From positions 432-64,431 of the forward strand of contig CAWFPC010000008.1 in the NCBI GenBank assembly GCA_963817745.1: a stretch of DNA of 64,000 bases, given 5' to 3'. The position numbers and the translations under genes were made by a program. The notes below the pieces were generated by a model. That model was not told the DNA's origin and did not search any database. It saw only the letters and a list, made by a program, of their open reading frames with translations. This DNA is from an uncultured Chloroflexia bacterium (GTDB lineage: Bacteria; Chloroflexota; Limnocylindria; Limnocylindrales; CSP1-4). The first letter of the stretch is position 1, and every line of letters starts with the position of its first letter. Shown piece after piece: positions 1 through 31,922 of this stretch.

Positions 1-339
1 GCATCGGCCGACGGCCTGGACGACCAGGAGCGAACGGTGGCGCTGCGCGTGGCGCAGGAGGCCATGCAGAATGTCCGCAAGCACGCCGAGGCGACGACCG
101 TGGTCGTGGATACCCAGCAGACGAACGGTGACTGGACGCTGGAGATCCGCGACGATGGCCGCGGCTTCGACCCCGCTGCGATCGCGCGTGGTGGCCGGAA
201 CTTCGGTGTGCGGTTCATGCGCGAGCGAGCCGAGCTGATCGGGGCCCGCTTCCACATACGTTCACGACCGGAGGGCGGTACCGTGGTGCGGCTGGAGATC
301 CCGACGGGGGCAAGGATGGGAGCAAAGGAGAACGGATGA
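1..339 (+). CDS. Sensor histidine kinase, C-terminal HATPase_c domain (5' truncated by window edge)
   Basis: Intact N box (QEAMQNVRKHA), G1 box (DDGRGF) and G2-like box (FGVRFMRERA) of NarX/DegS-class kinases; overlaps the next gene (ATGA). Confidence 0.9.
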   Translation, partial: ASADGLDDQERTVALRVAQEAMQNVRKHAEATTVVVDTQQTNGDWTLEIRDDGRGFDPAAIARGGRNFGVRFMRERAELIGARFHIRSRPEGGTVVRLEIPTGARMGAKENG

Positions 340-1082
340 GCGCGAGCGAATACGGCGGACCGGACCGCAGACGGGGCGGTCCCGATCGACGGACACCGGG
401 CGAGACCACCCGGATCCTCATCGTCGACGATCACGCGTTGTTCCGGGCGGGCGTCGCCGGGATCCTCGCTCGTGAATCCGACTTCGAGATCGTGGGCGAG
501 GCCGACGACTCGCGGAGTGCCGTCGATCGATCGCTCGAGACGTCGCCCGACATCGTCCTGATGGACCTCTCGCTGCCATCCCCCGGCGGCATCGAGACCA
601 CGCAGCGGATCAAGCGCGAGCTGCCGTCCACCGGGATCATCGTGCTCGCCCAGACCGAGGACGAGGACGCGCTGTTCGACGCCATCAAGGCCGGTGCCGC
701 AGCCTTCATCCTCAAGGACGTCGGGCCCGACGACCTCGTCACGATCATCCGCCGCGTCGCGACCGGCGAGTTCCTCATCAACGACAAGGTGTTCTCCAAG
801 CCGGCGGTCGCCTCGCGCGTCCTCAAGGAGTTCCGCGAGCTCGCGGTCTACGGCCAGGAGGCCGCCCCGATCTTCGCGCCGCTCTCGCCGCGCGAGGTCG
901 AGATCCTGGACAACATCGCCCAGGGCATGACCAACAAGCAGGTCGCCTACGCGCTCTCGATCAGCGAGCAGACCGTCAAGAACCACATGAGCTCCATCCT
1001 GCGCAAGCTGTCGGTGAACGACCGGACCCAGGCCGTCGTGTACGCGATGCGCCAGGGTTGGATCCGGATGCCCGAGGACTGA
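336..1082 (+). CDS. NarL/DegU-family response regulator (REC + LuxR HTH)
   Basis: ILIVDDH...PDIVLMDLSLP receiver; LSPREVEIL...GMTNKQVA...TVKNHMSSILRKL LuxR HTH. Confidence 0.95.
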   Translation: MSASEYGGPDRRRGGPDRRTPGETTRILIVDDHALFRAGVAGILARESDFEIVGEADDSRSAVDRSLETSPDIVLMDLSLPSPGGIETTQRIKRELPSTGIIVLAQTEDEDALFDAIKAGAAAFILKDVGPDDLVTIIRRVATGEFLINDKVFSKPAVASRVLKEFRELAVYGQEAAPIFAPLSPREVEILDNIAQGMTNKQVAYALSISEQTVKNHMSSILRKLSVNDRTQAVVYAMRQGWIRMPED

Positions 1083-2323
1083 TGCCCGACGAGACACCGT
1101 CACCGACGGCCGCCCTCGACGAGCTGTCGGAACGGCTGGCCGACGACCTCCTCACGCTCGACAAGGAGCTGGTCGAGGTCGACCTGTTGATCGCGCAGGC
1201 GAAGACCGAGTCGGCGCGGCACGAGGGCCGCCGCGTGGCCGCGACGGAGAAGCTCGCCACCGTCGGCGACGACGCGGACCCGAAGGAGCGCATCGACGCG
1301 CTCACCGCGATCATCACGCTCACGAAGCGCGCCGCGCTCATGGAGACCCAGGTCGACGTGCTCGAGGGCAAGCGGCGCGCCCTCGCCCGCTACCGCGATG
1401 GGCTCGCCTCCTACATCGACGCCGTCACCGGGCTCGATCCGGCCGCCCTCGCGGCGCGCGCCCTCGAAGCGCCGACGGACGATGCTGCCCCGGACGCTCC
1501 GATGTCGCCGGCGGTCTCCCGCCTCGTGCTCGGCGCCCAGGAGGATCTCCGACGCGAGATCGCCCGGGCGATGCATGACGGGCCCGCCCAGAGCCTGACG
1601 AACATCGTGCTCCAGGCGCAGATCGTCGACCGGTTGGTCGTGCGCGATCCGGCCTCGGCGGCGATCGAGGTCCAGCAGCTGATCGCGATGGTCCAGCAGA
1701 CGCTGGATGCCACGAAGTCGTTCATCTTCGACGTCCGACCCATGGTCCTCGACGACCTCGGGCTCGTGCCGACGATGCGCCGGGCGACCCGGGACCGCGG
1801 CCGTCGCGCCGGCGTCCCCGTCGAATTCGATTCACTCGGGCAGGACCGTCGCCTGCCGATGGACCTCGAGAGCGGCCTGTTCCGCATCCTCGACGAGGCG
1901 CTCGCCGCGTACCTCGCCGCGGAGCCCGATCGCGTCGCCCTCCGGCTCGACTGGGGCGAGCAGCTGGAGGCGCACGTCACCGCGACGCGGGCGGTCGTCG
2001 AAGGCGCGCCGCCGGCGAGCGGCGTCGTGCCGACGATCCCTGGCAAGGACCTGCCGCCGGCCCTCGCCGCGATGATGGAGGACCGTCGCGCCGATGAACG
2101 CGACGCCGCCGAGGCGGCCGTCCGCGATGCGGTCGTGCACCTGCCCCCGGCGACATGGCGGGAGATCCAGGACCGGGCGGCATCCATCGGGGTCACGGTG
2201 GAGCTCCTCGCCGACGGGGGCGAGCTCCGGCTGCTGGCCGACATCCCGCCGCCCGATGCGGCGACCGCCCCCGGCGACGAAGCCGCAGACCAGCCTGCGG
2301 CCGTCGACGTCCCAGCCGGCTGA
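1082..2323 (+). CDS. DegS-like cytoplasmic histidine kinase (coiled coil + HisKA_3) with degenerate ATP-binding domain
   Basis: AQEDLRREIARAMHDGPAQSL H box and FDVRPMVLDDLGLVPTM resemble DegS; no TM helix; N and G boxes missing. Start at ATG 1082, overlapping the upstream TGA. Confidence 0.85.
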   Translation: MPDETPSPTAALDELSERLADDLLTLDKELVEVDLLIAQAKTESARHEGRRVAATEKLATVGDDADPKERIDALTAIITLTKRAALMETQVDVLEGKRRALARYRDGLASYIDAVTGLDPAALAARALEAPTDDAAPDAPMSPAVSRLVLGAQEDLRREIARAMHDGPAQSLTNIVLQAQIVDRLVVRDPASAAIEVQQLIAMVQQTLDATKSFIFDVRPMVLDDLGLVPTMRRATRDRGRRAGVPVEFDSLGQDRRLPMDLESGLFRILDEALAAYLAAEPDRVALRLDWGEQLEAHVTATRAVVEGAPPASGVVPTIPGKDLPPALAAMMEDRRADERDAAEAAVRDAVVHLPPATWREIQDRAASIGVTVELLADGGELRLLADIPPPDAATAPGDEAADQPAAVDVPAG

Positions 2324-2336
2324 GCGGGCGATCGTC

Positions 2337-2504
2337 GTGGGGGCGCGTGCGACCGGGCGAGGTCAGGGCCTGGTCGAGTACGGACTCATCCTGGTCCTCG
2401 CCGCCGTGCTCACGGTCGTGTGGCTGAACCTGTTCGGCGGGGCCATCGCGGACGCGCTCGCGGCCATCGGCCGGTTCATCGATGCCGCCACGGGCGGCGC
2501 GTGA
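2337..2504 (+). CDS. Divergent Flp-family pilin (probable minor pilin)
   Basis: G|QGLVEYGLIL Flp motif followed by a hydrophobic helix; GTG start at 2337 inferred. Confidence 0.7.
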   Translation: MGARATGRGQGLVEYGLILVLAAVLTVVWLNLFGGAIADALAAIGRFIDAATGGA

Positions 2505-2556
2505 TGCGGGCGCGCACCGGTCACTCCGGCTGGCGCGACCGGTACCATCGAGCCAG

Positions 2557-2586
2557 TTGTGGGCCACTCTCAGGGCGCGCTATGTT
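2557..2586 (+). promoter_or_regulatory. Possible sigma70-type promoter of second pilin
   Basis: TTGTGG-N18-TATGTT upstream of AGGAGG RBS at 2623-2628. Confidence 0.35.
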
Positions 2587-2636
2587 GGCGCCAGCCCTCG
2601 ATCGAGGGACGAGTACTCATCCAGGAGGCGCACGAC

Positions 2637-2811
2637 ATGGCACTTATCGTCAGCACGATCCTCGCCGCCCTTCATCGGGACGAGGAAGGCCAGGGCCTCG
2701 CGGAGTACGCGCTGATCCTCGCCCTCATCGCCATCGTCGCGATCATCGCCCTCATCTTCCTGGGCGGCCAGGTCAGCTCGATCCTCAGCGACGTCGGCGA
2801 CGTCGGTCTAA
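2637..2811 (+). CDS. flp: Flp/Fap pilin (one +1 indel near 3' end)
   Basis: MALIVSTILAALHRDEEG|QGLAEYALILALIAIVAIIALIFLGGQVSSILSDVG; TAA at 2809-2811 is reached after removing one extra base relative to the sister copies. Confidence 0.9.
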
Positions 2812-2836
2812 CCGACCACCGACGCATCGAGTCCAG

Positions 2837-2875
2837 GACCGCCGGGCCTTCGGGACCGGCGGTCTTGTCGTATTT
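2837..2875 (+). terminator. Intrinsic terminator after pilin 2
   Basis: GACCGCCGG-g-CC-TTCG-GG-a-CCGGCGGTC hairpin followed by TTGTCGTATTT. Confidence 0.8.
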
Positions 2876-2904
2876 GTGCACGCATCGCTCGGTCACACGG
2901 CCAC

Positions 2905-2933
2905 TTGACATGCCAGAGGGTGCCTCGTACCGT
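2905..2933 (+). promoter_or_regulatory. Sigma70-type promoter of pilin 3
   Basis: TTGACA-N17-TACCGT. Confidence 0.75.
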
Positions 2934-2939
2934 GGCCCA

Positions 2940-2986
2940 GCCTCCGGGCGACCGGGGAGCCTGTACGGAAAGGAGGTACCACCCAC
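2940..2986 (+). repeat. Conserved pilin 5' leader, copy 1 (hairpin + AAGGAGGT RBS)
   Basis: GCCTCCGGGCGACCGGGGAGCCTG...GGAAAGGAGGTACCA, nearly identical to 3288-3334. Confidence 0.85.
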
Positions 2987-3156
2987 ATGTCTCAGCTTTT
3001 TGCTCTGATCTCGTCCTTCCGCACTGACGAGGAGGGCCAGGGTCTCGCCGAGTACGCGCTGATCCTCGCCCTCATCGCGATCGTGGCGATCATCGCCCTG
3101 ATCTTCCTGGGCGGCCAGGTCTCTCGATCCTCAGCGACGTCGGCGAGTCGGTCTAA
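2987..3156 (+). CDS. flp: Flp/Fap pilin (one -1 indel)
   Basis: MSQLFALISSFRTDEEG|QGLAEYALILALIAIVAIIALIFLGGQV...SDVGESV; TAA at 3154-3156. Confidence 0.9.
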
Positions 3157-3179
3157 CCACCGACGCCAGCTGAAACGCA

Positions 3180-3216
3180 GACCGCCGGTCACACGGCCGG
3201 CGGTCTTCGTGTTTCT
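3180..3216 (+). terminator. Intrinsic terminator after pilin 3
   Basis: GACCGCCGG...CCGGCGGTC stem followed by TTCGTGTTTCT. Confidence 0.8.
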
Positions 3217-3250
3217 GGCGACGCACGGGATGCACCCGGCCTACGGCCTA

Positions 3251-3281
3251 TTGACACGCCCGCACGCGGCCTCCGTACGGT
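3251..3281 (+). promoter_or_regulatory. Sigma70-type promoter of pilin 4
   Basis: TTGACA-N19-TACGGT at the same position relative to the conserved leader as in the pilin 3 unit; the long spacer may include indel error. Confidence 0.6.
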
Positions 3282-3287
3282 AGCCCC

Positions 3288-3334
3288 GCCTCCGGGCGAC
3301 CGGGGAGCCTGCATCGGAAAGGAGGTACCAACTC
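3288..3334 (+). repeat. Conserved pilin 5' leader, copy 2
   Basis: GCCTCCGGGCGACCGGGGAGCCTG...GGAAAGGAGGTACCA. Confidence 0.85.
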
Positions 3335-3507
3335 ATGTCGCAGCTTTTTGCCCTTATCTCGTCCTTCCGCACTGATGAGGAAGGCCAGGGTCTCGCGGAG
3401 TACGCGCTGATCCTCGCCCTCATCGCGATCGTCGCGATCATCGCCCTTGTCTTCCTGGGTGCCCAGGTCTGCGACCATCCTCAGCGATGTCGGCGAGTCG
3501 CGTCTAG
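3335..3507 (+). CDS. flp: Flp/Fap pilin (two +1 indels)
   Basis: MSQLFALISSFRTDEEG|QGLAEYALILALIAIVAIIALVFLGAQV...; TAG at 3505-3507. Confidence 0.9.
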
Positions 3508-3535
3508 ACCACCGACGTCTCGACGTCACCGAAAC

Positions 3536-3572
3536 GACCGCCGGGCCCGTCGGGCTCGGCGGTCTTCTTTGT
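3536..3572 (+). terminator. Intrinsic terminator after pilin 4
   Basis: GACCGCCGGGCCC-GTC-GGGCTCGGCGGTC followed by TTCTTTGT. Confidence 0.85.
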
Positions 3573-3659
3573 CTCGGATGGCCGTCACGATCCGGCTCCA
3601 GGGCGCCGTTGCGCAGGCCTGGATGACGGTCATGGTGTCGGCCGTACGACAGCGCACCA

Positions 3660-3737
3660 CCAACCTTGCACCCAACCTTGCGACACGCATGGTTTCCTGC
3701 CGTTTCCTACCAGATGGTCCTAGCCCTTTGGTATAGT
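3660..3737 (+). promoter_or_regulatory. cpaB operon promoter: extended -10 with two upstream direct-repeat pairs
   Basis: TG-G-TATAGT at 3729-3737; CCAACCTTGC twice (3660-3669, 3672-3681); GTTTCCT(G/A)CC twice (3692-3711). Confidence 0.55.
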
Positions 3738-3799
3738 CGCGCGGCTTTTGGGCGGTGCTACAGTGGTGCCACCTGTCACACGACTCGGGGAGTACCAAC

Positions 3800-4704
3800 T
3801 TGAAGCGTTCTAATCGTCTCGTCCTGCTCGTGGGCGTCTTTCTCGCGATCGTCGCGTTCGTGGGGATCCTGCTGATCGCCCAAGGCGGCGGCGGCGACGC
3901 CGGAGGACCGACGATTCCCACCACGGCGCCGCACCGTCATCGCGACGGCGGACATCCCGCTCGGCTCGCGCATCGGCGCCGACCAGGTCACGGTCCAGGT
4001 CAAGGACCTCGAAGGGCGGGACGCGGACGCATTCGGCGACACGTCGCAGGTCATCGGGCAGATCGTGCGCCAGCAGGTCACGGCGGGCCAGGCGATCACC
4101 CAGCGAACGCTCACGGGTGGCACCCAGGGGCAGATCCTCAACATCGAGACACCGCCCGGACAGCGTTCCATCGCCGTCCAGGTCGACCAGGTCACCGGCG
4201 TCGGCACGGTCATCAAGACCGGCGACTACGTGGACATGATCGTCGGCCTCACCGCCGCCCAGTTCCCCGTCATCACCGTGAACCCGGACGACGACACGTT
4301 CAGCGTCGTGGGCGGCCTCAACGGCACGAGCGTCAAGCTCCTGCTGCAGGGCATGCAGGTCCTGGGCACGCTGCTCCCGCCGCCGCCGGCGCGCGGACCC
4401 GAACGCGCCCGCCCCGTCGGGCGGACCGAGCATCGACCCTCTCACCGGCCAGCAGGAGATCGTGATCCTGTCGGTCACGGCCCAGCAGGCCGAGATCATC
4501 AAGTTCGTCCAGATGGACGGCAACGTGTCCCTCGTCCTGCGCTCACCCGAAGACTTCATCGACCCGACCACCGGTCAGCCGTTCCCCGACGGTCCCGTCC
4601 CGGACACGACGACCGGCGTCATCCTCAAGACGCTCGTCGATACCCTCGGCGTCCTGCCGCCGGAACTCGTCGAGACGGTCCTTCCGAGCCAGGAGCAGCC
4701 CTGA
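3800..4704 (+). CDS. cpaB: Flp pilus assembly protein CpaB/RcpC (frameshifted in assembly)
   Basis: N-terminal TM; SAF-like segment; PPGQRSIAVQVDQVTGVGTVIKTGDYVDMIV and ILSVTAQQAEII RcpC motifs across three frames; TTG start. Confidence 0.85.
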
Positions 4705-4865
4705 TCACGTCCTTCCCGGGCGGCCGGACGGCCGCCACTCCCCGACCCAGGCGCAACGGGCGCGATGGACCGCCAGGTCCCGCGCCCGTCCTGGTCAGGG
4801 CCACGCACGCACCCCGCTGACGCACCGACCAACGACATCAACGACAACGAGAGCCGAACCGCCTG

Positions 4866-6125
4866 ATGGCAGACCAGATCCGCGTCCTCATCGTCGACGA
4901 CATCCCGGAGACCCGCGACCACCTCACGAAGCTGCTCGGCTTCGAGAGCGACATCGACGTGGTCGGCTCGGCGGCGTCCGGCGCGGAAGCCCTCGATCTC
5001 GCGACGAAGCTCTCCCCGGATGTCGTCCTGATGGACATCAACATGCCGGACATGGACGGCATCGCCACGACGGAGCTGATGTCCCACTCGGCGCCCGCCG
5101 CGTCCGTGATCATGATGTCGGTCCAGGGCGAGGCGGACTATCTCCGCCGATCGATGCTCGCCGGCGCACGCGAGTTCCTCGTCAAGCCCTTCAGCAGCGA
5201 CGAGCTCACCGCGTCGATCCGGCAGGTCTACGGCCGCGAGCGCGAGAAGCTCAGCCGCATGGTCGTCGCGCCGGCCGCAGCATCGGCCGAACGGCAGCGC
5301 GTCCTCGGAGGGGTCCGCCGACCCGGGCATCGTCGTCGCGGTGTTCAGCCCGAAGGGCGGCGTCGGTCGGACGACCGTGGCCGTCAATCTCGCCGTCGCC
5401 GCCGCCACCGAGCTCGGCAAGAAGGTCGTCGTCGTGGACGCGTCCTTCCAGTTCGGCGACGTCGGCGTCCTGCTCAACCTGAACCTCAAGAACAAGTCGA
5501 TCGCCGACCTCATGCCCGAGCTCGACCAGGGGGAGCTCGACTCGCTCGACACGTTCGTGATCAACCACTCCGCGGGGATCCGCGTGCTGCTCGCTCCGCC
5601 GTCGCCCGAGATGGCCGAGCTCATCACGCCGAGCGCCATCAAGCGGGTCCTGGAGACGCTCCGCCGCGATCACGACCTCGTGGTCGTCGACTGCACGGCG
5701 TTCTTCAACGACACGACCCTCGCGATCCTCGATGCCGCCGACATCATCCTCACGATGCTCAGCCTCGAGATCACGAGCATCAAGAACATGCGGCTCTTCC
5801 TCGAGATCGCCGACCAGCTCGGCTACGAGGCCGGCAAGGTCCGACTCGTCCTCAACCGCGCCGATTTCGGCGCTCGGCATCCGGGTCGCGGACGTCGAGC
5901 ATTCGATCGGCCGCAAGGTCGACGAGACCATCGTCAGCGACGGTCGCAGCGTGGTCTACGCGCTGAACCGTGGCGTACCGTTCTTTCTCAGCAACCGGGA
6001 GACACAGGTCTCCCAGGACATCCTCCGATTGGCCCGGTCGGTCGTCGGTGAGCGGACGCATGTCGCGGCCGGCGCCGAGGGCCCAGAAGGCCGCGCAGAA
6101 GAAATCGTTGTTCGCATGGCGATGA
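4866..6125 (+). CDS. cpaE: Receiver domain + CpaE/TadZ MinD-like ATPase (frameshifted)
   Basis: REC (VLIVDD, LMDINMPDMDG, FLVKP) then FSPKGGVGRTT deviant Walker A, DASFQFGD and LVLNR; ends KKSLFAWR* at 6125. Confidence 0.85.
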
Positions 6126-6174
6126 AGGTGCTCGCACCCGCGGGCAGCCCCACGGGGCATAAAGGGGTGAAGAC

Positions 6175-7593
6175 ATGTCCCTGTTGAAGCGGATCGAGAG
6201 CGCTCGACCAGGTGGCGCCGGCACACCGGCCGCACCGCCTTCCGGAGAACCCGGACCGAACCTGCCGGCTCCCGCCGGCGGCCAGCCGCCGCCGTCGATG
6301 GGGACGGCGCGTCTCCAGTCCCAGGCGCCGGTCCGTGAGTCCTTCCGTGACGTGAAGTTCCGGATCCAGAACCGCGTCATCCAGGACCTGGACCCGAAGC
6401 TCGACCTGTCGAACCAGGTCGAGGTCCGACGCCAGATCGAGGAGATCTTCGGCAAGGTCATCGACGAGGAAGGCCTCGCGCTGACCCGTGCCGAGCGCGT
6501 CCGGATGCTCGAGCAGATCACGGACGAGATCATCGGCCTCGGACCGCTCGAGCCCCTGCTCCGCGACGAGTCGATCACCGAGGTCATGGTCAACGGCCCG
6601 CGCCAGGTCTACATCGAGCGCTCCGGCAAGCTGGAGCTGACCAACGTCGTGTTCCAGAACGACGACCACGTCATGCGCATCATCGATCGGATCATCGCGC
6701 CGATCGGCCGCCGCGTGGACGAGTCGTCGCCGATGGTCGATGCCCGACTGACCGACGGTTCCCGCGTCAACGCCATCATCCCGCCGCTGTCTTTGGTGGG
6801 CCCGGTCGTCACCATCCGGAAGTTCTCGGCATCGCCCTTCACCGTCGACGATCTGATCCGGTTCGGCACCGCGACCGCAGACATGTTCGACTTCCTTCGC
6901 GCCTGTGTGGAGGCTCGCCTGAACATCTTCGTCTCCGGCGGCACCGGCTCCGGCAAGACCACGACCCTCAACGTGCTGTCGTCGTTCATCCCGAACGACG
7001 AGCGCATCGTGACGATCGAGGACGCCGCCGAGCTGCAGCTCCGCCAGGAGCACGTCGTCACGCTGGAATCGCGTCCGCCGAACATCGAGGGCAAGGGCGC
7101 GATCCCGATCCGCGAGCTCGTGCGCAACGCCCTGCGCATGCGGCCCGATCGCATCATCGTCGGCGAGTGCCGATCCGGTGAGGCGCTGGACATGCTCCAG
7201 GCCATGAACACGGGCCATGACGGCTCGATGTCCACCGGCCACGCCAACTCACCACGCGACATGCTGTCGCGCCTCGAGACGATGGTCCTCATGGCCGGCG
7301 TCGACCTGCCGCTGCGGGCCATCCGCGAGCAGGTCGCCTCGGCGGTCGACCTCATCGTCCAGCAGAGCCGCCTCAAGGACGGGACCCGGAAGATCGTCAA
7401 CATCACCGAGGTCCAGGGCATGGAAGGCGACGTCATCGTCATGCAGGACGTCTTCGTCTTCGAGCAGACGGGCGTCGTCGAGGGCAAGATCCAGGGCCGC
7501 CTCAAGGCGACCGGCATCCGTCCGAAGTTCGTCGAGAAGTTCGAGATCATGGGCATCAACCTGCCCCCGGGTCTCTTCGGCTTCACCTACTAG
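6175..7593 (+). CDS. cpaF: Tad pilus assembly ATPase CpaF/TadA
   Basis: GGTGSGKTT Walker A, TIEDAAEL, ALRMRPDRIIVGECR, AMNTGHDGSMSTGHAN. Confidence 0.97.
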   Translation: MSLLKRIESARPGGAGTPAAPPSGEPGPNLPAPAGGQPPPSMGTARLQSQAPVRESFRDVKFRIQNRVIQDLDPKLDLSNQVEVRRQIEEIFGKVIDEEGLALTRAERVRMLEQITDEIIGLGPLEPLLRDESITEVMVNGPRQVYIERSGKLELTNVVFQNDDHVMRIIDRIIAPIGRRVDESSPMVDARLTDGSRVNAIIPPLSLVGPVVTIRKFSASPFTVDDLIRFGTATADMFDFLRACVEARLNIFVSGGTGSGKTTTLNVLSSFIPNDERIVTIEDAAELQLRQEHVVTLESRPPNIEGKGAIPIRELVRNALRMRPDRIIVGECRSGEALDMLQAMNTGHDGSMSTGHANSPRDMLSRLETMVLMAGVDLPLRAIREQVASAVDLIVQQSRLKDGTRKIVNITEVQGMEGDVIVMQDVFVFEQTGVVEGKIQGRLKATGIRPKFVEKFEIMGINLPPGLFGFTY

Positions 7594-7614
7594 TCGAGAG
7601 GAGGAAGACCGACC

Positions 7615-8633
7615 GTGGACCCGCTCATCCTCGGCGTGGCCGGTGTCGCCGCGTTGGCCATCCTGCTGATCGCCGTCGGCGTCGCGAGCTCCGGGAGCTC
7701 CGGCATCTCGGACCGGCTGGAACGCTATGCGTCGAGCAAGACCGAGACCAAGGCCGCGTCCAGCTGGCGGCCAGGGGCCGATCACCGACCTGATCGCCCA
7801 GAGCGCCGCGCTCGCCAACCTCAACAAGGCGGTCGAGGGGCGCGACTACGGTGCCAACCTGGCGCGCGAGATCGCGCGCGCAGACCTCAAGCTCAAGCCG
7901 TCCGAGTTCCTCATGATCCGGGCTGGCATCGACGATCGGCATCCCCGATCGCGATGCTCGTGCTGTCGGTCGTGCTTCCCGTCGCTCGGCAACCCGCTCC
8001 TCGTGCTGATCGGCGGCCTCGTCGGGTTCATGCTCCCCAAGTTCTGGCTGGGACGGCGCAAGTCGGGACGCCTCAACGCGTTCAACAAGTCGCTCCCGGA
8101 CACGATCACGCTCATCGCCAACGCGCTGCGCGCCGGATCGTCGTTCCTGCAGGCCATCGAGCTCGTCGTCCGTGAGTCCCGACCGCCGATCTCCACCGAG
8201 TTCGGGCGGGTCATCCGCGAGGTGAACCTCGGCCTGCCGTTCGAGCAGGCCCTCGAGAACATGGTCCGCCGCGTACGGTCGGACGACCTCGAGCTCATGG
8301 CGACCGCGATCTCGATCCAGTACCAGGTCGGCGGCAACCTCGCCGAGATCCTGGACTCGATCGCCTACACCATCCGCGAGCGGGTCCGCATCAAGGGCGA
8401 GATCCGGACCCTGACGGCGCAGCAGCGCCTGTCCGGGTATGTCGTCGGCTTCCTGCCGATCGGCCTGGCGGGCTTCCTGTTCATCGCGGCGCCGCGGTTC
8501 ATGGACCCGATGTTCGACCCGGCCGTCGCCATCATCGGCCTGCCGGCCGGCGTCATCATCCTCGCGATCGGTGGATTCATGATGTTCCTCGGGCTTCATG
8601 CTCATCCGCAAGATCGTGGACATCGAGGTCTAG
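7615..8633 (+). CDS. tadB: Tad pilus platform protein TadB (T2SSF domain; frameshifted)
   Basis: SLPDTITLIANALRAGSSFLQA...GGNLAEILDSIAYTIRERVRIKGEIRTLTAQQRLSG; stop TAG 8631-8633. Confidence 0.9.
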
Positions 8634-8635
8634 CC

Positions 8636-9569
8636 GTGGAAGTCCTGCCCATCGCCGTCGCCGCTCTCGCGGCCGGCGCCATCCTCCTGATCGTCCTCGG
8701 GCTCACCGGCAGCTCGCCGGTCGACCCGGTCCAGGCTCGCCTGAGCCAGCTCGGCACCATGCAGGCGAAGAACCTCGAAGAGCTCGAGCTGCAGGCCCCG
8801 TTCATGGAGCGGACGCTGCGTCCACTCGCCCTGGGCCTGTCCAGCCGCATGACCCGGATGCAGTCCGCGTCGTTCAGCGAGAAGACCGAGAAGCGCCTCG
8901 CCCTCGCGGGCAATCCCGGTGACCTTCGGGTCGCCGACTGGCTCGGCATCAAGGCCATCGGCGCGATCGTCGGCGGCATCCTGTTCTTCCTGCTGTTCGT
9001 CGTCGGCGGCGTCATCGGGTTCCCGTTCCTCATCGGGCTCGTGATGACCGGCCGTCGGCGCGCTCCTCGGCTACACCGTCCCCGAGTTCTGGCTCGGCGG
9101 TCGCGTCAAGAAGCGCCAGAAGGCCATCCTCCTGATGATCCCGGACACGCTCGACCTGCTGACGATCTCGGTCCGCGCCGGTCTCGGCTTCGACGCCGCG
9201 CTGGGCAAGGTCGTCGAGAAGCTCAAGGGCCCGCTGTCCGAGGAGTTCCGCCGCGCACTCGCCGAGGTCCGCGTCGGCAAGGCGCGCCGCGACGCGCTGC
9301 GCGACATCGTCCCGCGCACCGAGGTGGTGCCGCTGACCAACTTCATCGGCGCGATCATCCAGGCCGAGCAGCTGGGTGTCTCGATCAGCAAGGTGCTGCA
9401 GGTCCAGTCGGAGCAGCTGCGCATCGAGCGCCGGCAGCGCGCCGAGGAACAGGCCGCCAAGGCACCGATCAAGATGCTGTTCCCGCTGGTCGGGTGCATC
9501 TTCCCCTCGCTGTTCATCGTCATCCTCGGGCCGGCCATCATCCTGATCGTCAAGAACCTCAAGGTCTGA
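8636..9569 (+). CDS. tadC: Tad pilus platform protein TadC (frameshifted)
   Basis: PDTLDLLTISVRAGLGFDAAL...QAEQLGVSISKVL...AEEQAAKAPIKMLFPLVGCIFPSLF. Confidence 0.92.
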
Positions 9570-9613
9570 CGCTGGGGGCCGACGACGCGGCCGGGGCTCC
9601 GCGGCGGGCCCGT

Positions 9614-10003
9614 GTGGCCGCGGCGGTCAGCGATGGCGCGACCGTCGGCAACGAGACGCGCGGCACGCAGCTCGTGGCACGACTCGAGGTCGGGTCGTCG
9701 TTGTGGGCCAAGTTCAAGGGCCTGATGGGTCGCCCCGCGCTGCCACCCGGCGACGGCTTGTGGCTGCCCGACAGCAACGGGATCCACATGATGTTCATGC
9801 GCTTCCCGATCGATGCCGTGTTCGTCGGCCGCCCGTTGCCGGATGACCCCGGCGTCCGTGTCGTCGTCGCGGCGAAGCGCGACGTGCGCGCGTGGACCGG
9901 GCTCGTGCCGCTCGTGCGGGCTGCGCACGGGGTGCTGGAACTCCCCGCCGGCACGATCGCGGCGTCGGGGACCGCCGTCGGGGATCGGCTCCGCTTCGGC
10001 TGA
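9614..10003 (+). CDS. DUF192 family protein
   Basis: KFKGLMGR...GLWLPDSNGIHMMFMRFPIDAVFV...VLELPAG pattern; start codon approximate. Confidence 0.85.
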   Translation: MAAAVSDGATVGNETRGTQLVARLEVGSSLWAKFKGLMGRPALPPGDGLWLPDSNGIHMMFMRFPIDAVFVGRPLPDDPGVRVVVAAKRDVRAWTGLVPLVRAAHGVLELPAGTIAASGTAVGDRLRFG

Positions 10004-10412
10004 CATCACGTGGCGTCCGGGGGCCCCGCGGAATCCGGGCGATCGCCGGGCGTGCCGGCGAGCGCCGCGAAATCGGCATCCATCGCGGTGGCTCGTACTA
10101 CACGCGGCGGACCTTGCCTGAATTCGGCACGCATCAGCCGCGCTCGTAGGGACCGATAACGAACGCCGTACGAAGCCCGAGTGAACACGATTCGCGTCCG
10201 AACCGGCCGAGAACGACCCAAGGTCACGCTTGCGCCGTCGATACGACTCGTGGGCGTGTTGTTTGCCGGTTTCTTGCGGCCAGGAGGTCGAGGCCGATCT
10301 GCCGTCGCCGTCGCCCGGCACCTGCTCGGATCCCAATGTCGCCTGCCCCCACATGCCACCCGATCGGCAAGCTCGTAAGTCCGGGTAGAGCGGCACCTCC
10401 CATGCTCACGGC

Positions 10413-11299
10413 ATGGACGATCGGCGTGTCGGGCGCATCGTTCGCGAGGTGCGGATCCACCGAGCGTGGCGCCAACGCGATCTCGCGGACCGCGCCGGCG
10501 TGAGCCAAGGGGTTGATCTCCATGATCGAGCGCGGGCGCCTCGAGAACGTATCGCTCGCTACGCTCCGAACGGTCAGTGCAGCCCTCGACATTCGCATCT
10601 CGATCGACGCTTGGTGGAGGTCGGGCGACGCGGATCGACTTCTCGATCGTGGCCACGCGGCACTCGTGGATCACGTGGTCACGAAGTTGCGGGCCTGGGG
10701 CTGGGCCACGCGCGTCGAGGTCACGTTCAACGCATACGGCGATCGCGGGTCCGCCGATGTCGTCGGCTGGCACGCCGGGGCAGCGGCTCCTGTTGATCGT
10801 CGAAGTGAAGACCGCGGATCCTCGACGTTCAGGAGACCCTGGCGACGTTTGCCCGGAAGGTTCGTGTCCTCCCGCCGCTCCTGGCCCGGGAAGAGGGCTG
10901 GTCGGCGCGATCCGTCGCCCGCCTTCTCGTCGTCGCAGACTCGCGCGGCAACCGCGACATCGTCCGCCGGCATGCGGCGACCTTCGATTCTGATCGGGCA
11001 GCGCGAGGACGGTGGCGGTGCGTCGGTGGCTCGCGCGGCCCGACGCCAGCGAACGTTCGAGCGGCTCGGATGCGGCACCGGCTCGCGGCTTCGGTGGGAT
11101 CTGGTTCGTGCTGCCGGCAACGCTCGGGACGACCGCTGGCGAGATCGATCGGTCGATCGAGGGTGCGATCGATGCGAACCCCACGGCCGCGCACCGTCGG
11201 AACGCCCGCGAGGCCATCCGTGATGGACATCGTCCGGGGCGTGACCGCCAAGGCCCTGGATCTCGCATTCCCCGGAACATGCGTCGGCTGCCGGCGTGA
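10413..11299 (+). CDS. XRE-family HTH fused to PD-(D/E)XK nuclease-like domain (several indels; 3' end uncertain)
   Basis: WRQRDLADRAGVSQ..ISMIERG HTH; SADVVGWH...LLIVEVKT catalytic-like motif at about 10750-10813. Confidence 0.7.
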
Positions 11300-11914
11300 A
11301 GGCACCGTCCTGTGTGACGCCTGCGGCCGCGCGCTCGACGCGCGCCTGGAGGCGCCCGCCGGCGTACCGATCGGGCTGCCCGGCGACATCCCATGGCCCC
11401 TCCTGCAGCTCGAATGGTGCGCCCCGTTCCACGGCGCCGTCCGAGCGGCGCTCCACGCGATCAAGTACGGCGGCGAGCAGCGCATCGCGACACCGCTCGG
11501 GGCGGCGATCGCGCGGCGATGGGCGCGCGTCGGGCGTGGGCGCCGAGATCGTGACCCACGTGCCCGTCCACGCCGACCGGGCACGGATGCGCGGGCTACG
11601 ACCAGGCGGCCCTGATCGCCGCGGCGGCCGCCACCGACCTCGGGCTCCCGTGCCTGCCGCTGCTCGAGCGCCGTCGCGCGACGATCGCCCAGTTCGACCT
11701 GGACCGACGCGACCGAGCCACCAACGTCGCCGGTGCGTTCGGCGTGCGCGCGGCCGCGCTGCCCGGAGCGACGTCGCCGCGCTCCGCGGCCGATGGATCC
11801 TGCTCGTCGACGACGTCGTGACGACCGGCGCGACGCTGGCGGCCTGTGCGATCGGCATTGCTGGCCGTGGGTGTCCTGGGCGTGTCCGCGATCACCGTCG
11901 CCCGCGAGCGTTGA
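11223..11914 (+). CDS. comF: ComF family phosphoribosyltransferase-like competence protein (frameshifted)
   Basis: N-terminal CVGC...CDAC zinc ribbon; VPVHADRAR..G; WILLVDDVVTTGATL PRTase motif; followed by hpf. Confidence 0.88.
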
Positions 11915-12013
11915 GACCGTCGCGGGCCAGCCCGCTCGGCCGGCCCCTGAGCGACCCGGGGCTATACTCGACGCAACGCGCCCGACCCCCGACGCACGCC
12001 CCGGAGGTGACGC

Positions 12014-29466: not shown

Positions 29467-30597
29467 CTACGGCGGCGTGTCGTGGTCGGTTCGTATGCCT
29501 CGGCTTCGAGTTCCTCGGGTCGGCGGAATGCGCCCCGGATCGGCCCGAACAGGACGAGTCCCGACAGCACGAACACGCCGAGGAACGCGTACAGCTGGTT
29601 CACCTCGGACAGCAGCAGCGCGATGAGCCCGAGCACGACGCAGATGCCGTAGATCACGAGGACCGTGCTGCGGTGCGACAGCCCGAGGTCGAGCAGCCGG
29701 TGGTGGATGTGCGAGCGGTCCGCGCTGAACGGGGACCGGCCCTCGCCGCAGCCGTCGGACGATGATCCAGAAGGTATCGATGATCGGGACACCCAGGACC
29801 AGCAGCACGACCGCGACCTTCCCGGACCCCAGGATCGACAGGACGGCCAGGGTGTACCCGACGAACTGGACGCCGCTGCTCCCGAGGAAGATCGACGCGG
29901 GGTGGAAGTTCCAGCGGAGGAACCCGAGGAGCGCGCCGGCCAGCGCGAAGCAGAGCACGGCGATGAGCGGCTGGCCGACCTGGGTCGTGAGGCTGATGAG
30001 GCCCAGCGTGACCGCCGCGATCGAGCGTGATCCCGCTCGAGAGGCCGTCGAGCCCGTCGATCCAGTTGATGCTGTTGATCATCCCGACGATCCAGAAGAT
30101 CGTGAACCCGATCGCGAACGCGCCTTCGAAGCGGATGCACGCCGCCGCCGAACGGATTCGCGATGAAGTCGATGGTGATGCCGAGCGCGATGGCGAGGAC
30201 CGCGAGCGCGAGCTGGCCGAGGAGCTGCCAGCGGGCGCGCAGGTCGAACAGGTCGTCGATCGCGCCGAGGATCGCGGCAAGCGGCGCCGCCAAGGAACAG
30301 GGCCGTGAGATCGGTCGCCGGCGGTTGCAGGTTGAGCGGCACGGGGACCCAGCCGGCCGCGCCGTTGAGCGCCACGAAGCCCGCCGCGACGAGCAGGAAC
30401 GCGGCCGCCACGGCCAGTCCGCCGGCGCGCGGGATCGGCGCCGTGTTGACCCGGCGCGCCTCGGGCCGGTCGACGATGCCGTGGCGGAGCACGTAGCGGC
30501 GGACGACCGGCGTGAGGCCGAGCGACAGGAGCCCCGCGGCGAGGAAGACCGCGATGATCGGGCCGACGCTCGCGCCGACGTCCTCGATGAAGGTCAC
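29467..30597 (-). CDS. wecA: WecA/TagO-family undecaprenyl-phosphate GlcNAc-1-phosphate transferase (multiple indels)
   Basis: [46 protein letters not shown]; typical glyA-wecA-atp order. Confidence 0.9.
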
Positions 30598-31922
30598 GCG
30601 GCGGGCAGGCCCGGCACGGGGAACCGCTCGACGATGGAGGTGACCTCGCCCGCGAGCCGGCGCTGGACCGCCGCGTCATCGCGGAGGCGGATGGCCTCGG
30701 CGATGATCCGCCCGATCGCGCGCATCTCGTCCTCGCCGAAGCCACGGGACGTGGTGGCCGGCGTGCCCAGGCGGATGCCGGAGGCCGTATTGGGCGGCAG
30801 CGGGTCGAACGGGATCGCGTTCTTGTTCACCGTCACGCCGATCTCGTCGAGCAGGTGCTCGGCTTCCTTGCCCGTGACCCCGAACGGCGTCACGTCGACG
30901 AGCAGCAGGTGGTTGTCCGTGCCGCCGGAGACGACCCGGGCGCCCTGCTCGGTGAGCGTTGCGGCGAGCGTCTGGGCGTTCGCAACGGTCCGCCGCTGAT
31001 CCTCGCGGAACGGTTCCTCCGCCGCGAGCTTGAAGGCGACCGCCTTCGCCGCGATCACGTGCATCAACGGGCCGCCCTGGACGCCGGGGAAGACGGTCTT
31101 GTCGATGGCCGGCCCGAGCGCGCCCTTGAGCGCCGGGAAGTCGGCCGGGTCGATGCCCTCGGGCAGCTCGGCGCGAGCGAAGATCAGCCCACCGCGCGGC
31201 CCGCGCAGCGTCTTGTGCGTCGTGGTCGTGACGATGTCGGCATGCGGGAAGGGGCTCGGGTGGACCCCGGCGGCGACGAGACCGGCGACGTGCGCCATGT
31301 CCACGAACAGCAGCGCCCCGACGGCATGCGCGATCGCCGCCATCCGCTCGAAATCCCAGGTCCGCGGGTACGCGCTGGCGCCGGCGACGATGAGCTTCGG
31401 CCGGACTTCGTGCGCCTGCGCCTCGAGGGCGTCGAGGTCGATCCGTTCGGTGTCCTGGCGGACGCCGTAGGCGTGGACCTCGTACAGCTTCCCGCTGAAG
31501 TTGAGCGCCATGCCGTGGGTGAGGTGCCCGCCATGGGCCAGATTCATGCCCAGGATGCGGTCGCCCGGTCGCAGGACGCTGAAGTAGGCCGCCATGTTGG
31601 CCTGGGCGCCCGAGTGGGGCTGGACGTTGACGTGCTCCGGCCCCGGGTAGAGGGCGAGCGCCCGCTCCTGGGCGAGTCGCTCGGCGACGTCGACGTACTC
31701 GCAGCCACCGTAGTAGCGCTTGCCCGGCAGCCCCTCGGCGTACTTGTTCGTCAGCCAGCTGCCCTGGGCCTCCATGACGGCGGCCGAGACGTAGTTCTCG
31801 CTGGCGATGAGCTCGATCTTGTCGTGCTGCCGCCGGCGCTCACCCTGCATCGCGTCCCAGAGGACCGGGTCGACCTCGGCGATCGACTCCATCGCTCGAC
31901 CGCTCGAGGCGGAGATGGCCAT
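30594..31922 (-). CDS. glyA: Serine hydroxymethyltransferase
   Basis: [53 protein letters not shown]. Confidence 0.98.

Follow-up and report, generated by a model that had tools for sequence, protein, structure and literature searches.

In Aggregatibacter actinomycetemcomitans, the flp-tad operon is headed by the pilin genes flp-1 and flp-2. The flp-tad operon of Haemophilus ducreyi is headed by flp1-flp2-flp3 (PMC3201912). The locus analysed here resembles these Pasteurellaceae arrays in that small Flp prepilin genes stand in tandem directly 5' of the tad genes and encode products with a G|xxxxEY motif and a hydrophobic core. It differs from them in being a secretin-less locus of the Chloroflexota and in equipping every copy with a conserved promoter-like box, a 5' hairpin and a terminator. 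Its paralogues also yield nearly identical mature products, unlike those of the Pasteurellaceae, which encode clearly different pilins in one operon. Multiple, separately regulated Flp pilin genes are also described for Bdellovibrio bacteriovorus, whose type IVb (Flp) pilin genes flp1-flp3 are differentially regulated (PMC5430801). Differential regulation was measured in Bdellovibrio, whereas in the present locus, whose tandem copies encode what is essentially a single mature pilin, it is predicted from upstream footprints. The solved Tad pilins PilA (PDB 8u1k) and Flp type IVb pilin (PDB 8u2b/8ucr), with 45 residues each, are single-helix mini-pilins, as are those encoded here. The flp family profile aligned with 8u1k and 8u2b over the whole mature part (E ~3e-6), with E5-Y6 in register; the differences were a shorter mature pilin in the present locus (39 residues) and low identity outside the N-terminal helix.

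The best explanation of the array, with a probability of about 0.78, is that it holds the major-pilin genes of a Tad (type IVc, Flp) pilus locus, the host being an uncultured soil bacterium of the Chloroflexota (Limnocylindria lineage). The locus is ordinary in kind, since multi-copy flp loci are already well known, and the current understanding of Tad pili is unchanged by the findings. What it would offer is a clean natural case of an abundant pilus subunit supplied, as a uniform product, by insulated and separately controlled genes.

Array anatomy and identity of the encoded pilins

The window, meaning the whole stretch of 64,000 nt that was analysed, contains three flp units (cassettes A, B and C, Table 1) in direct repeat, successive units starting 347 and 348 nt apart, confirming the tandem, near-identical repeat described in the initial annotation. 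The core DEEG|QGLAEYALILALIAIVAIIAL is common to the three cassettes, as had been stated, and the word ACCACCGACG, claimed to follow each stop, was found at all three sites (2815-2824, 3156-3165 and 3508-3517), but the "stops" preceding it are out of frame as assembled. GC-rich GACCGCCGG...CCGGCGGTC hairpins with T-rich tails follow all three cassettes, in agreement with the shared terminator stem that had been proposed. The 5' leaders of cassettes B and C are nearly identical, whereas cassette A was correctly singled out for its different upstream region and leader peptide. Over the whole cassette, B and C share 80% identity, and the promoter spacer and post-stop region are where they differ by numerous substitutions. 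A divergent flp-like gene ("copy 1") lies upstream of cassette A and possesses a very short leader, without a strong terminator hairpin of its own; its Pfam Flp_Fap score was 22.5 bits against a cut-off of 32.2, and a gene of this type was found at the matching position in 7/9 relatives of the first set compared.

Table 1. Features of the flp array and of the adjoining Tad genes, in positions of the window.
Feature	Position	Strand	Elements and basis
Divergent flp-like gene, "copy 1"	2337..2504	+	GQGLVEYGLIL...AIDAATGGA*; 14 nt past upstream HisKA_3 kinase-like gene
Cassette A upstream region	2540..2636	+	Conserved GTACCATC box 2543-2549; -10-like TATGTT 2581-2586; 5' hairpin CCCTC-GATC-GAGGG 2595-2608; palindrome GAGTACTC 2611-2618; ribosome-binding site AGGAGG 2623-2628; from alignment of 7 A-type upstream regions and sequence reading
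flp cassette A coding region	2637..2811	+	ATG 2637; leader MALIVSTILAALHRDEEG; mature pilin begins QGLAEY; TAA 2809-2811 in frame +1 relative to the ATG; assembled ORF extends to 3008
Cassette A predicted terminator hairpin and T-rich tail	2834..2867	+	GACCGCCGGGCC...GGACCGGCGGTC; -26.8 kcal/mol
Cassette B candidate promoter and 5' leader	2905..2986	+	TTGACA 2905-2910, 17-nt spacer, TACCGT 2928-2933; 5' hairpin 2941-2959; GGAGG 2972-2976; from sequence reading and comparison of relatives' upstream regions
flp cassette B coding region	2987..3156	+	ATG 2987; leader MSQLFALISSFRTDEEG; TAA 3154-3156 in frame +2 relative to the ATG; assembled ORF extends to 3283
Cassette B predicted terminator hairpin and T-rich tail	3179..3206	+	-27.6 kcal/mol
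Cassette C candidate promoter and 5' leader	3251..3334	+	TTGACA 3251-3256, 19-nt spacer, TACGGT 3276-3281; 5' hairpin 3289-3307; GGAGG 3321-3325; from sequence reading and comparison of relatives' upstream regions
flp cassette C coding region	3335..3507	+	ATG 3335; leader as in B; VFLGA and T for S set its mature part apart; TAG 3505-3507 in frame +2 relative to the ATG; assembled ORF extends to 3736
Cassette C predicted terminator hairpin and T-rich tail	3536..3564	+	-27.6 kcal/mol
Tad assembly genes cpaB, tadZ/cpaE, tadA/cpaF, tadB, tadC	3800..9569	+	From Pfam domains and frame-break map

The assignment of the products to the Flp-type pilins is supported by the Tad assembly genes downstream, together with the profile match to the solved pilins. 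The Pfam domains found 3' of the array were SAF and RcpC (cpaB), REC and AAA_31 (tadZ/cpaE), T2SSE (tadA/cpaF) and T2SSF (both tadB and tadC); tadA/cpaF is intact (6175-7593), and every other Tad gene, as assembled, is interrupted by frame breaks. Scores of the window proteins against PF04964 (Flp_Fap) ranged from 19 to 22.5 bits, compared with the curated cut-off of 32.2, and a search of the window proteins against NCBIfam gave no match to a Flp model. More than 7,900 homologues were found, and the best ones listed were mostly of 56 aa, many of them named Flp or PilA with PF04964 on record. DEEG|QGLAEYALILALIAIVAIIALIFLG, found in all three copies, combines a Gly-terminated leader with the G|xxxxEY processing motif and a hydrophobic helix of ~20 residues, and the G, E and Y of this motif were invariant in an alignment of 14 sequences. 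Within this genome, flp genes are confined to the Tad locus, and a single Peptidase_A24 gene was found outside it (PF01478, 51 bits, G000:C12:39006-39323). This peptidase would cut the prepilin after the Gly of DEEG|QGLAEY, releasing the mature pilin of 39 residues.

Candidate transcription signals

Most likely, the near-identical flp genes are transcribed separately and strongly, each as a monocistronic unit in which a sigma-70-like promoter would be followed by a 5'-proximal stem-loop, a strong GGAGG, a prepilin ORF of ~56 codons and an intrinsic terminator. The stem-loop would probably stabilise the mRNA, and the terminator would shield the low-copy cpaB, tadZ, tadA, tadB and tadC from pilin-level transcription. 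Because cassette A differs from B and C in promoter, leader RNA and leader peptide, one mature subunit may be supplied under different controls. The view of the initial annotation that the cassettes are self-contained appears to be sound, judging from the conserved upstream footprints and from the terminators. The arrangement TTGACA-N17-19-TAnnGT, 5' hairpin and GGAGG was found in 15/15 B-type copies, and an A-type footprint, with its own -10-like box, hairpin and palindrome, in 7/7 copies; in cassette A itself, the -10-like TATGTT is the sole promoter element seen. Six terminator-like sites were obtained in the scan against 0.8 expected from shuffles, and hairpins with T-tails follow 39 of the 47 flp copies of 14 genomes, with stems of -20 to -36 kcal/mol.

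When folded singly, each B-type 5' leader formed a hairpin at the same place, with modest z-scores. RNAalifold returned 3 pairs and no useful covariation for these leaders, because the stems vary in length and are misregistered by MAFFT. A search of positions 1-12000 against Rfam at E<=1 gave no match, so the 5' hairpins would not belong to a described RNA family. Additionally, the whole genome was searched for a regulon sharing the A-type palindrome or the B-type promoter, and the motifs were found at the flp locus only.

It has also to be considered that the array may be transcribed mainly as one polycistronic RNA running into cpaB, and that the hairpins, instead of being full terminators paired with promoters inside the array, set the ratio of pilin to machinery by leaky attenuation, by RNA processing or by stabilising 3' ends. 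Leaky hairpins after flp are usual in tad loci, and the T-tails of the present locus are interrupted, e.g., TCGTGTTTCT and TTCTTTGTCT. The TTGACA hexamer of the promoter claimed for cassettes B and C and their common 5' leader are both present, but a strict sigma-70 scan reported no promoter, and the candidate promoters were called from TTGACA and a TAnnGT -10-like hexamer kept in relatives. Such a single transcript is nonetheless considered unlikely, given that the B-type hexamers and their spacing are kept in every copy while their flanks vary freely, that the A-type copies have a conserved footprint of their own, and that stable stems with T-rich tails follow most of the copies.

Reading frames and probable assembly errors

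None of the stops assumed in the initial annotation is in frame; four 1-nt indels had been silently corrected there, and the broken frames were missed. The TAA, TAA and TAG of cassettes A, B and C are out of frame because of 1-base indels in the last ~45 nt, namely an apparent 1-nt insertion at ~2800-2803 in cassette A (relatives end in ...VGDSV*), an apparent 1-nt deletion at ~3122-3124 in cassette B and two apparent 1-nt insertions, at ~3471 and ~3501, in cassette C. The assembled ORFs reach 123, 98 and 133 codons by reading through the hairpins, compared with a family length of ~56 codons in the clade. These overlong ORFs lower the trust in the gene models of this assembly, not in the membership of the Flp family.

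Frame breaks are found throughout the window, which presented 0.81-0.93 frame switches per kb in comparison with short-read relatives (controls of 0, 0.08 and 0.27). As located by frameshift-aware protein-to-DNA alignment, which superseded a nucleotide multiple alignment for cpaB/cpaE that was too noisy at 70-80% identity, almost all of the breaks were 1-nt insertions (~25 insertions and 2 deletions in 8 genes). The genome is 68% "complete" in just 15 contigs, and its nearest named relatives are Nanopore-only MAGs (Flye, one Medaka round). Based on the window-wide indel load and on the 56-aa homologues, the four flp indels most likely arose as consensus errors, in a long-read metagenome assembly that is rich in indels, and not through biology. 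With about one 1-nt insertion, probably spurious, in each kb of coding sequence, the three flp genes and many others in the genome will be mis-called or missed by annotation, and users of this MAG should polish it before use.

Were the frameshifts real, flp, cpaB, tadZ, tadB and tadC would be pseudogenes of a decaying locus, or redundant copies free to decay. All three flp copies are broken, and the 4 indels in ~520 nt of flp coding sequence, all of them in the tails, amount to a density ~9-fold the window average. Broken flp copies were also found in other long-read relatives (three in G010, two in G016 and one in G011), and G010 has copies that combine frameshifts with substitutions at otherwise invariant residues, which has the look of true decay; some of the broken copies in these relatives could be redundant copies in real decay. 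For the window such an explanation is improbable, as similar 1-nt insertions break a murA-type gene, the gene of the ATP synthase a subunit and a GT4 transferase gene, and so strong a bias towards insertions over deletions is characteristic of errors. The core flp codons show perfect conservation once the indels are set aside, tadA shares 94-96% identity with its counterparts in relatives, and the "completeness" of the genome is low despite the few contigs. With consensus error retained as the preferred explanation, the excess of indels in the flp tails calls for a further cause, and strain or paralogue polymorphism may have confused the consensus.

Several of the insertions resemble both alleles of a SNP retained side by side. 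When metagenome contigs were scanned by exact pattern for the tail sequence of the window, with or without the extra bases, no match was obtained. Quadruplet decoding or a fixed 4-letter insertion context was rejected as well, the contexts being diverse and several of them lying at the start of short C/G runs. A genuine on/off switch, in which pilin expression would be phase-varied by frameshifting in the 3' tail, is highly improbable: the tail positions of the indels recur across genomes and paralogues (+G after GGCRAC in copy A of the present genome, G000, and in copy 2 of G016; +G after GGC in two G010 copies), but the sites have no homopolymer or short-repeat tracts, the window-wide insertion errors account for the indels, and we know of no switch design that breaks only the last few codons and reads through the terminator.

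Conservation of the array and evolution of its paralogues

The flp array, with 2-5 copies, is present in 13/13 independent assemblies of relatives whose upstream sequence reaches far enough, and because it recurs in all of them the arrangement is far beyond chance. This recurrence also argues against the third copy, or the entire triplication, being an assembly artefact of a repeat, a very remote prospect even though the region is repetitive, the assembly is error-prone and the contigs of short-read relatives stop just downstream of the expected array position; cassettes B and C are, moreover, too different for an assembly duplication, which would be near-identical. Regarding the origin of the copies, the identity between upstream regions of different genomes was 0.60 for A-A and 0.49 for B-B, compared with 0.37 for A-B within one genome. 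By this measure A and B, which differ in leader and promoter, are old positional paralogues across the genus, whereas C, which has the same leader peptide as B, is a lineage-specific duplicate of B. The whole-unit duplication put forward earlier, which was predicted to raise pilin dosage, is thereby upheld for B to C and not for A and B.

The evolution of A and B was compared by substitutions in 12 same-genome A/B pairs. The A-B amino-acid identity was 0.992 within the same genome and 0.913 with permuted partners, and the codon identity was 0.853 and 0.794, respectively (P<5e-5 in both cases). Within genomes, 4 codon differences were amino-acid-changing and 70 synonymous-only, compared with 494 and 1014 between genomes (binomial P=1.3e-8, within vs between). 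In the mature-coding part, within-genome paralogues are closer than between-genome orthologues, and the upstream regions show the opposite. The C-terminal tail of 13-14 residues varies freely between genomes, with dN/dS values of 0.65-0.92 between genomes and 0.14 within a genome, and the core presented a value of 0.05. Synonymous differences numbered 1-11 per A/B pair against a between-genome mean of ~7.7 (Wilcoxon P=0.07).

The excess of synonymous over amino-acid differences between A and B implies that an identical mature pilin is under selection within the genome. The suggestion that the array is a substrate for gene conversion was partly borne out, in that the copies do not evolve independently, but simple homogenisation is insufficient to explain the substitution counts. 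As in the concerted evolution of tandem paralogues, the mature segments of some genomes are nearly nucleotide-identical while the flanks have diverged; the near-zero synonymous difference in some genomes indicates recent conversion, and 4/12 A/B pairs (1-4 synonymous differences each) look recently converted. The difference from plain concerted evolution is that in most genomes the synonymous differences between A and B nearly match those between species, whereas amino-acid differences are ~11-fold fewer; selection for an identical protein is needed beyond homogenisation to account for this. The identity of mature A and B looks like the outcome of selection for identity and episodic gene conversion, and the 12-genome comparison provides a small but clear signal that the protein identity of the paralogues is selected, not merely inherited. 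About even odds are given to the wider proposal that in this Limnocylindria genus one mature pilin is deliberately encoded in at least two differently controlled units, distinct in promoter, 5' RNA and leader peptide, whose proteins are kept identical by selection and by short or episodic conversion while the tail diversifies. The diversification of the exposed tail may be driven, for example, by the pressure of pilus-using phages or predators. As a side reading, strain-level polymorphism of the tail may be what corrupts the long-read consensus there. In most relatives, the slot filled here by cassette C is held by a third, divergent pilin type.

The flp array and its Tad locus

The array is a real, tidy and ordinary pilin array in an error-rich assembly. 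Four flp-like genes were found in 2300-3600 of the window, the last three of which (cassettes A, B and C) were grouped by a repeat finder into a single three-copy family spaced 347 and 348 nt apart, in agreement with the period of about 348 bp in the initial annotation. The features described there were all present, namely the common core of DEEG followed by QGLAEYALILALIAIVAIIAL, the post-stop word ACCACCGACG, the terminators built on a GACCGCCGG...CCGGCGGTC stem and the TTGACA of B and C, followed by a 5' leader nearly identical between the two. A terminator scan returned 6 terminator-like sites, where shuffled sequences would be expected to give 0.8. Cassettes B and C are true paralogues and not an assembly duplication, an artefact that the initial annotation had allowed for, because they are only 80% identical over the whole cassette (90% over the codons of the leader peptide, 89% over the mature region).

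Features of the flp array and neighboring genes in the window
Feature	Position	Strand	Frame loss as assembled	Expected stop	ACCACCGACG	Hairpin and T-rich tail	TTGACA	Assembled ORF end
REC-GerE regulator	336-1082
HisKA_3 kinase-like gene	1058-2323
Divergent flp-like gene (ends ...AIDAATGGA*)	2337-2504	+
Cassette A (near-identical to B, C)	ATG 2637	+	near 2800-2803, apparent 1-nt insertion	TAA 2809	2815	2834-2867		3008
Cassette B (near-identical to A, C)	ATG 2987	+	near 3122-3124, 1-nt deletion	TAA 3154	3156	3179-3206	2905	3283
Cassette C (near-identical to A, B)	ATG 3335	+	near 3471 and 3501, two 1-nt insertions	TAG 3505	3508	3536-3564	3251	3736
tadZ/cpaE homologue	4866-5276
Example frame breaks	3929, 4410, 5286, 5863, 7732, 9044, 19933, 27200, 29751-30643

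The genes of the cassettes are Flp pilins. Pfam Flp_Fap matched the window proteins at sub-threshold scores (19-22 bits) and an NCBIfam search of the same proteins gave no Flp match; a profile of 14 family members hit two solved Tad pilins, 8u1k and 8u2b, at an E of about 3e-6, the alignment keeping Glu5-Tyr6 in register, and homologues carry the names Flp/PilA in public sources. Domain matches placed cpaB (SAF+RcpC), tadZ/cpaE (REC+AAA_31), tadA (T2SSE), and tadB and tadC (T2SSF) downstream. One A24 prepilin peptidase is encoded in the source genome, away from the locus, and no further flp genes were found elsewhere in that genome. Cut behind the Gly of DEEG, the prepilin would yield a mature pilin of 39 residues.

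The divergent gene starts 14 nt downstream of the kinase-like gene and keeps this place in most relatives. Its leader is only a few residues long and it lacks its own terminator; a role as minor or priming pilin is possible. A REC-GerE regulator and the kinase-like gene stand just upstream of the pilins, and in the tadZ/cpaE homologue the AAA_31 ATPase domain is preceded by a complete receiver domain (Response_reg, 102 bits).

The arrangement is classical: as in the window, flp-1/flp-2 of A. actinomycetemcomitans are multi-copy genes in tandem. The same holds for flp1-3 of H. ducreyi (PMC3201912). Differential regulation of flp genes was reported in Bdellovibrio (PMC5430801), and compensating pilin paralogues were discussed in Bradyrhizobium (PMC12918737).

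The region upstream of tadA was compared in same-genus genomes and named MAGs; the sequence of one named locus and of four contigs from short-read assemblies ends before the array. Cassette number, a comparison proposed in the initial annotation, was 2-5 near-identical copies at the same place in 13/13 relatives with enough upstream sequence, with one divergent copy in front in 7/9 relatives of the first set. The copies sort into positional types, among them A-type with a MALF... or MALI... leader and B-type with MSQL..ALISS.. or MT..YL.... A divergent third pilin, C-type (...SQVSDKLSVVGNAM, sometimes longer), occupies the last slot of most relatives, about 2.7-2.8 kb upstream of tadA (L014, L015, L017-L020); the window is without it, and a B-like duplicate (3335-3507) fills the slot. 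The four short-read contigs (G006:C29, G014:C144, G002:C360 and G018:C21; L022-L025) end 2.1-2.4 kb upstream of tadA, just downstream of the array site, as expected if repeats break short-read assemblies.

Broken reading frames

The stops assumed for the three ORFs in the initial annotation were all out of frame as assembled, and the ORFs continue through the hairpins; overall, its observation was partly confirmed and its interpretation partly supported. Compared with paralogues and relatives, frame was always lost inside the last ~45 nt. Several indirect lines of evidence favour assembly error over real indels. When ORFs of the short-read relative G006 (a syntenic 30-kb contig) were mapped on the window, 18 frame switches were found in 7,446 aligned residues (0.81 per kb), and a second short-read relative gave 0.93 per kb, against control rates of 0 (G006 vs G014), 0.08 and 0.27 per kb. 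Frameshift-aware alignment of eight genes showed ~25 one-base insertions vs 2 deletions, several of the insertions sitting where short C or G runs begin. Among the genes broken in this way are those for a murA-type enolpyruvyl transferase, for the a subunit of ATP synthase and for a GT4 transferase, losses that a living cell would be unlikely to survive and that favour an artefact. The flp core codons are perfectly conserved apart from the indels, and the best listed of >7,900 homologues in public metagenomes are nearly all 56 aa, ending ...QVSxILSTVGxS(V/I).

The source genome comprises 3.2 Mb in 15 contigs with a completeness score of only 68%, and few contigs with low completeness are usual for an indel-rich long-read MAG. 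Among named genomes, the closest to it are Microflora Danica MAGs, which are Nanopore-only, assembled with Flye and given one Medaka round (PMC12313526). Between 3700 and 34000, about 0.8-0.9 frame breaks per kb coding were counted, almost all 1-nt insertions, and cpaB, tadZ, tadB, tadC and an endonuclease IV-like gene are also split. Gene calls of this genome should be polished before use.

The flp coding sequence carries 4 indels in about 520 nt, ~9x the window average, all in the variable tail, and flp copies are broken in other long-read relatives too. Real decay of redundant copies is possible in some relatives, e.g. G010. We infer that strain or paralogue polymorphism in the hypervariable tail probably confuses the consensus. 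Several tail insertions resemble both SNP alleles side by side (GAC/GAG to GACG, TCG/GCG to TGCG, ACC/GCC to GACC) at about 2802, 3471 and 3501 in the window, in copy 2 of G016 and in copies 3 and 5 of G010 (L021, L013), and an identical insertion at an identical position recurs across separate genomes or paralogues. The pattern points to an artefact of the consensus where sites are polymorphic.

Expression signals

Upstream of B-type copies, TTGACA, a 17-19-nt spacer, TAnnGT, a hairpin and then GGAAAGGAGGT were found in 15/15 copies, the predicted hairpin starting 6-8 nt after TAnnGT with stem sequences that differ between genomes. The A-type upstream differs and keeps its own elements in 7/7: a GTACCATC box, a -10-like CTATAtTG, a CCCTC-n4-GAGGG hairpin, a 16-nt near-palindrome around GAGTACTC and AGGAGG. 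Downstream of 39/47 copies there is a strong hairpin (-20 to -36 kcal/mol) and a T-rich tail, the copies without them being mainly the divergent first gene. These conserved footprints support the view that the copies are expressed as separate units, with no fewer than two kinds of control.

A ~30-nt block, GAGGGTGAGTACTCATCCAGGAGGC, is nearly invariant at 2604-2628 and upstream of A-type copies in 6 relatives (L013-L020). The block, which contains the near-palindrome GGGTGAGTACTCATCC, separates the ribosome-binding site from the 5' hairpin, exclusively in A-type flp, and could be an operator or an RNA element; in the source genome it is unique to the flp locus.

Uniformity within genomes

The A and B copies are old, since their upstream regions show positional orthology (between genomes, A-A identity is 0.60 and B-B identity 0.49, vs 0.37 for A-B within a genome). 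Mature A-B amino-acid identity within a genome was 0.992 vs 0.913 for permuted partners (12 genomes, P<5e-5), and identical-codon frequency was mildly raised (0.853 vs 0.794; codon-bias floor 0.65). By Nei-Gojobori, dN/dS was 0.05 in the core, and in the 14-codon tail 0.65-0.92 between genomes and 0.14 for A vs B of the same genome. Same-genome pairs held 4 amino-acid-changing and 70 synonymous-only codon differences, vs 494 and 1014 between genomes (binomial P=1.3e-8); amino-acid differences were lower within the genome in 12/12, synonymous differences in only 8/12.

The gene conversion raised initially is supported in part. Four of the 12 pairs (L031, L032, G010 and L034), with only 1-4 synonymous differences, look like recent conversion, as do two B-type copies of G011 that are nucleotide-identical over the mature part, whereas the pairs of G017, L036 and G015 keep 9-11 synonymous differences with <=1 amino-acid difference. 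The best reading of these comparisons is episodic gene conversion plus selection keeping the mature subunit uniform, the tail diversifying between species; only this signal of selection for identity holds some interest beyond the locus. The window copies follow the rule of within-genome uniformity, all three sharing an otherwise rare SDVG in the tail.
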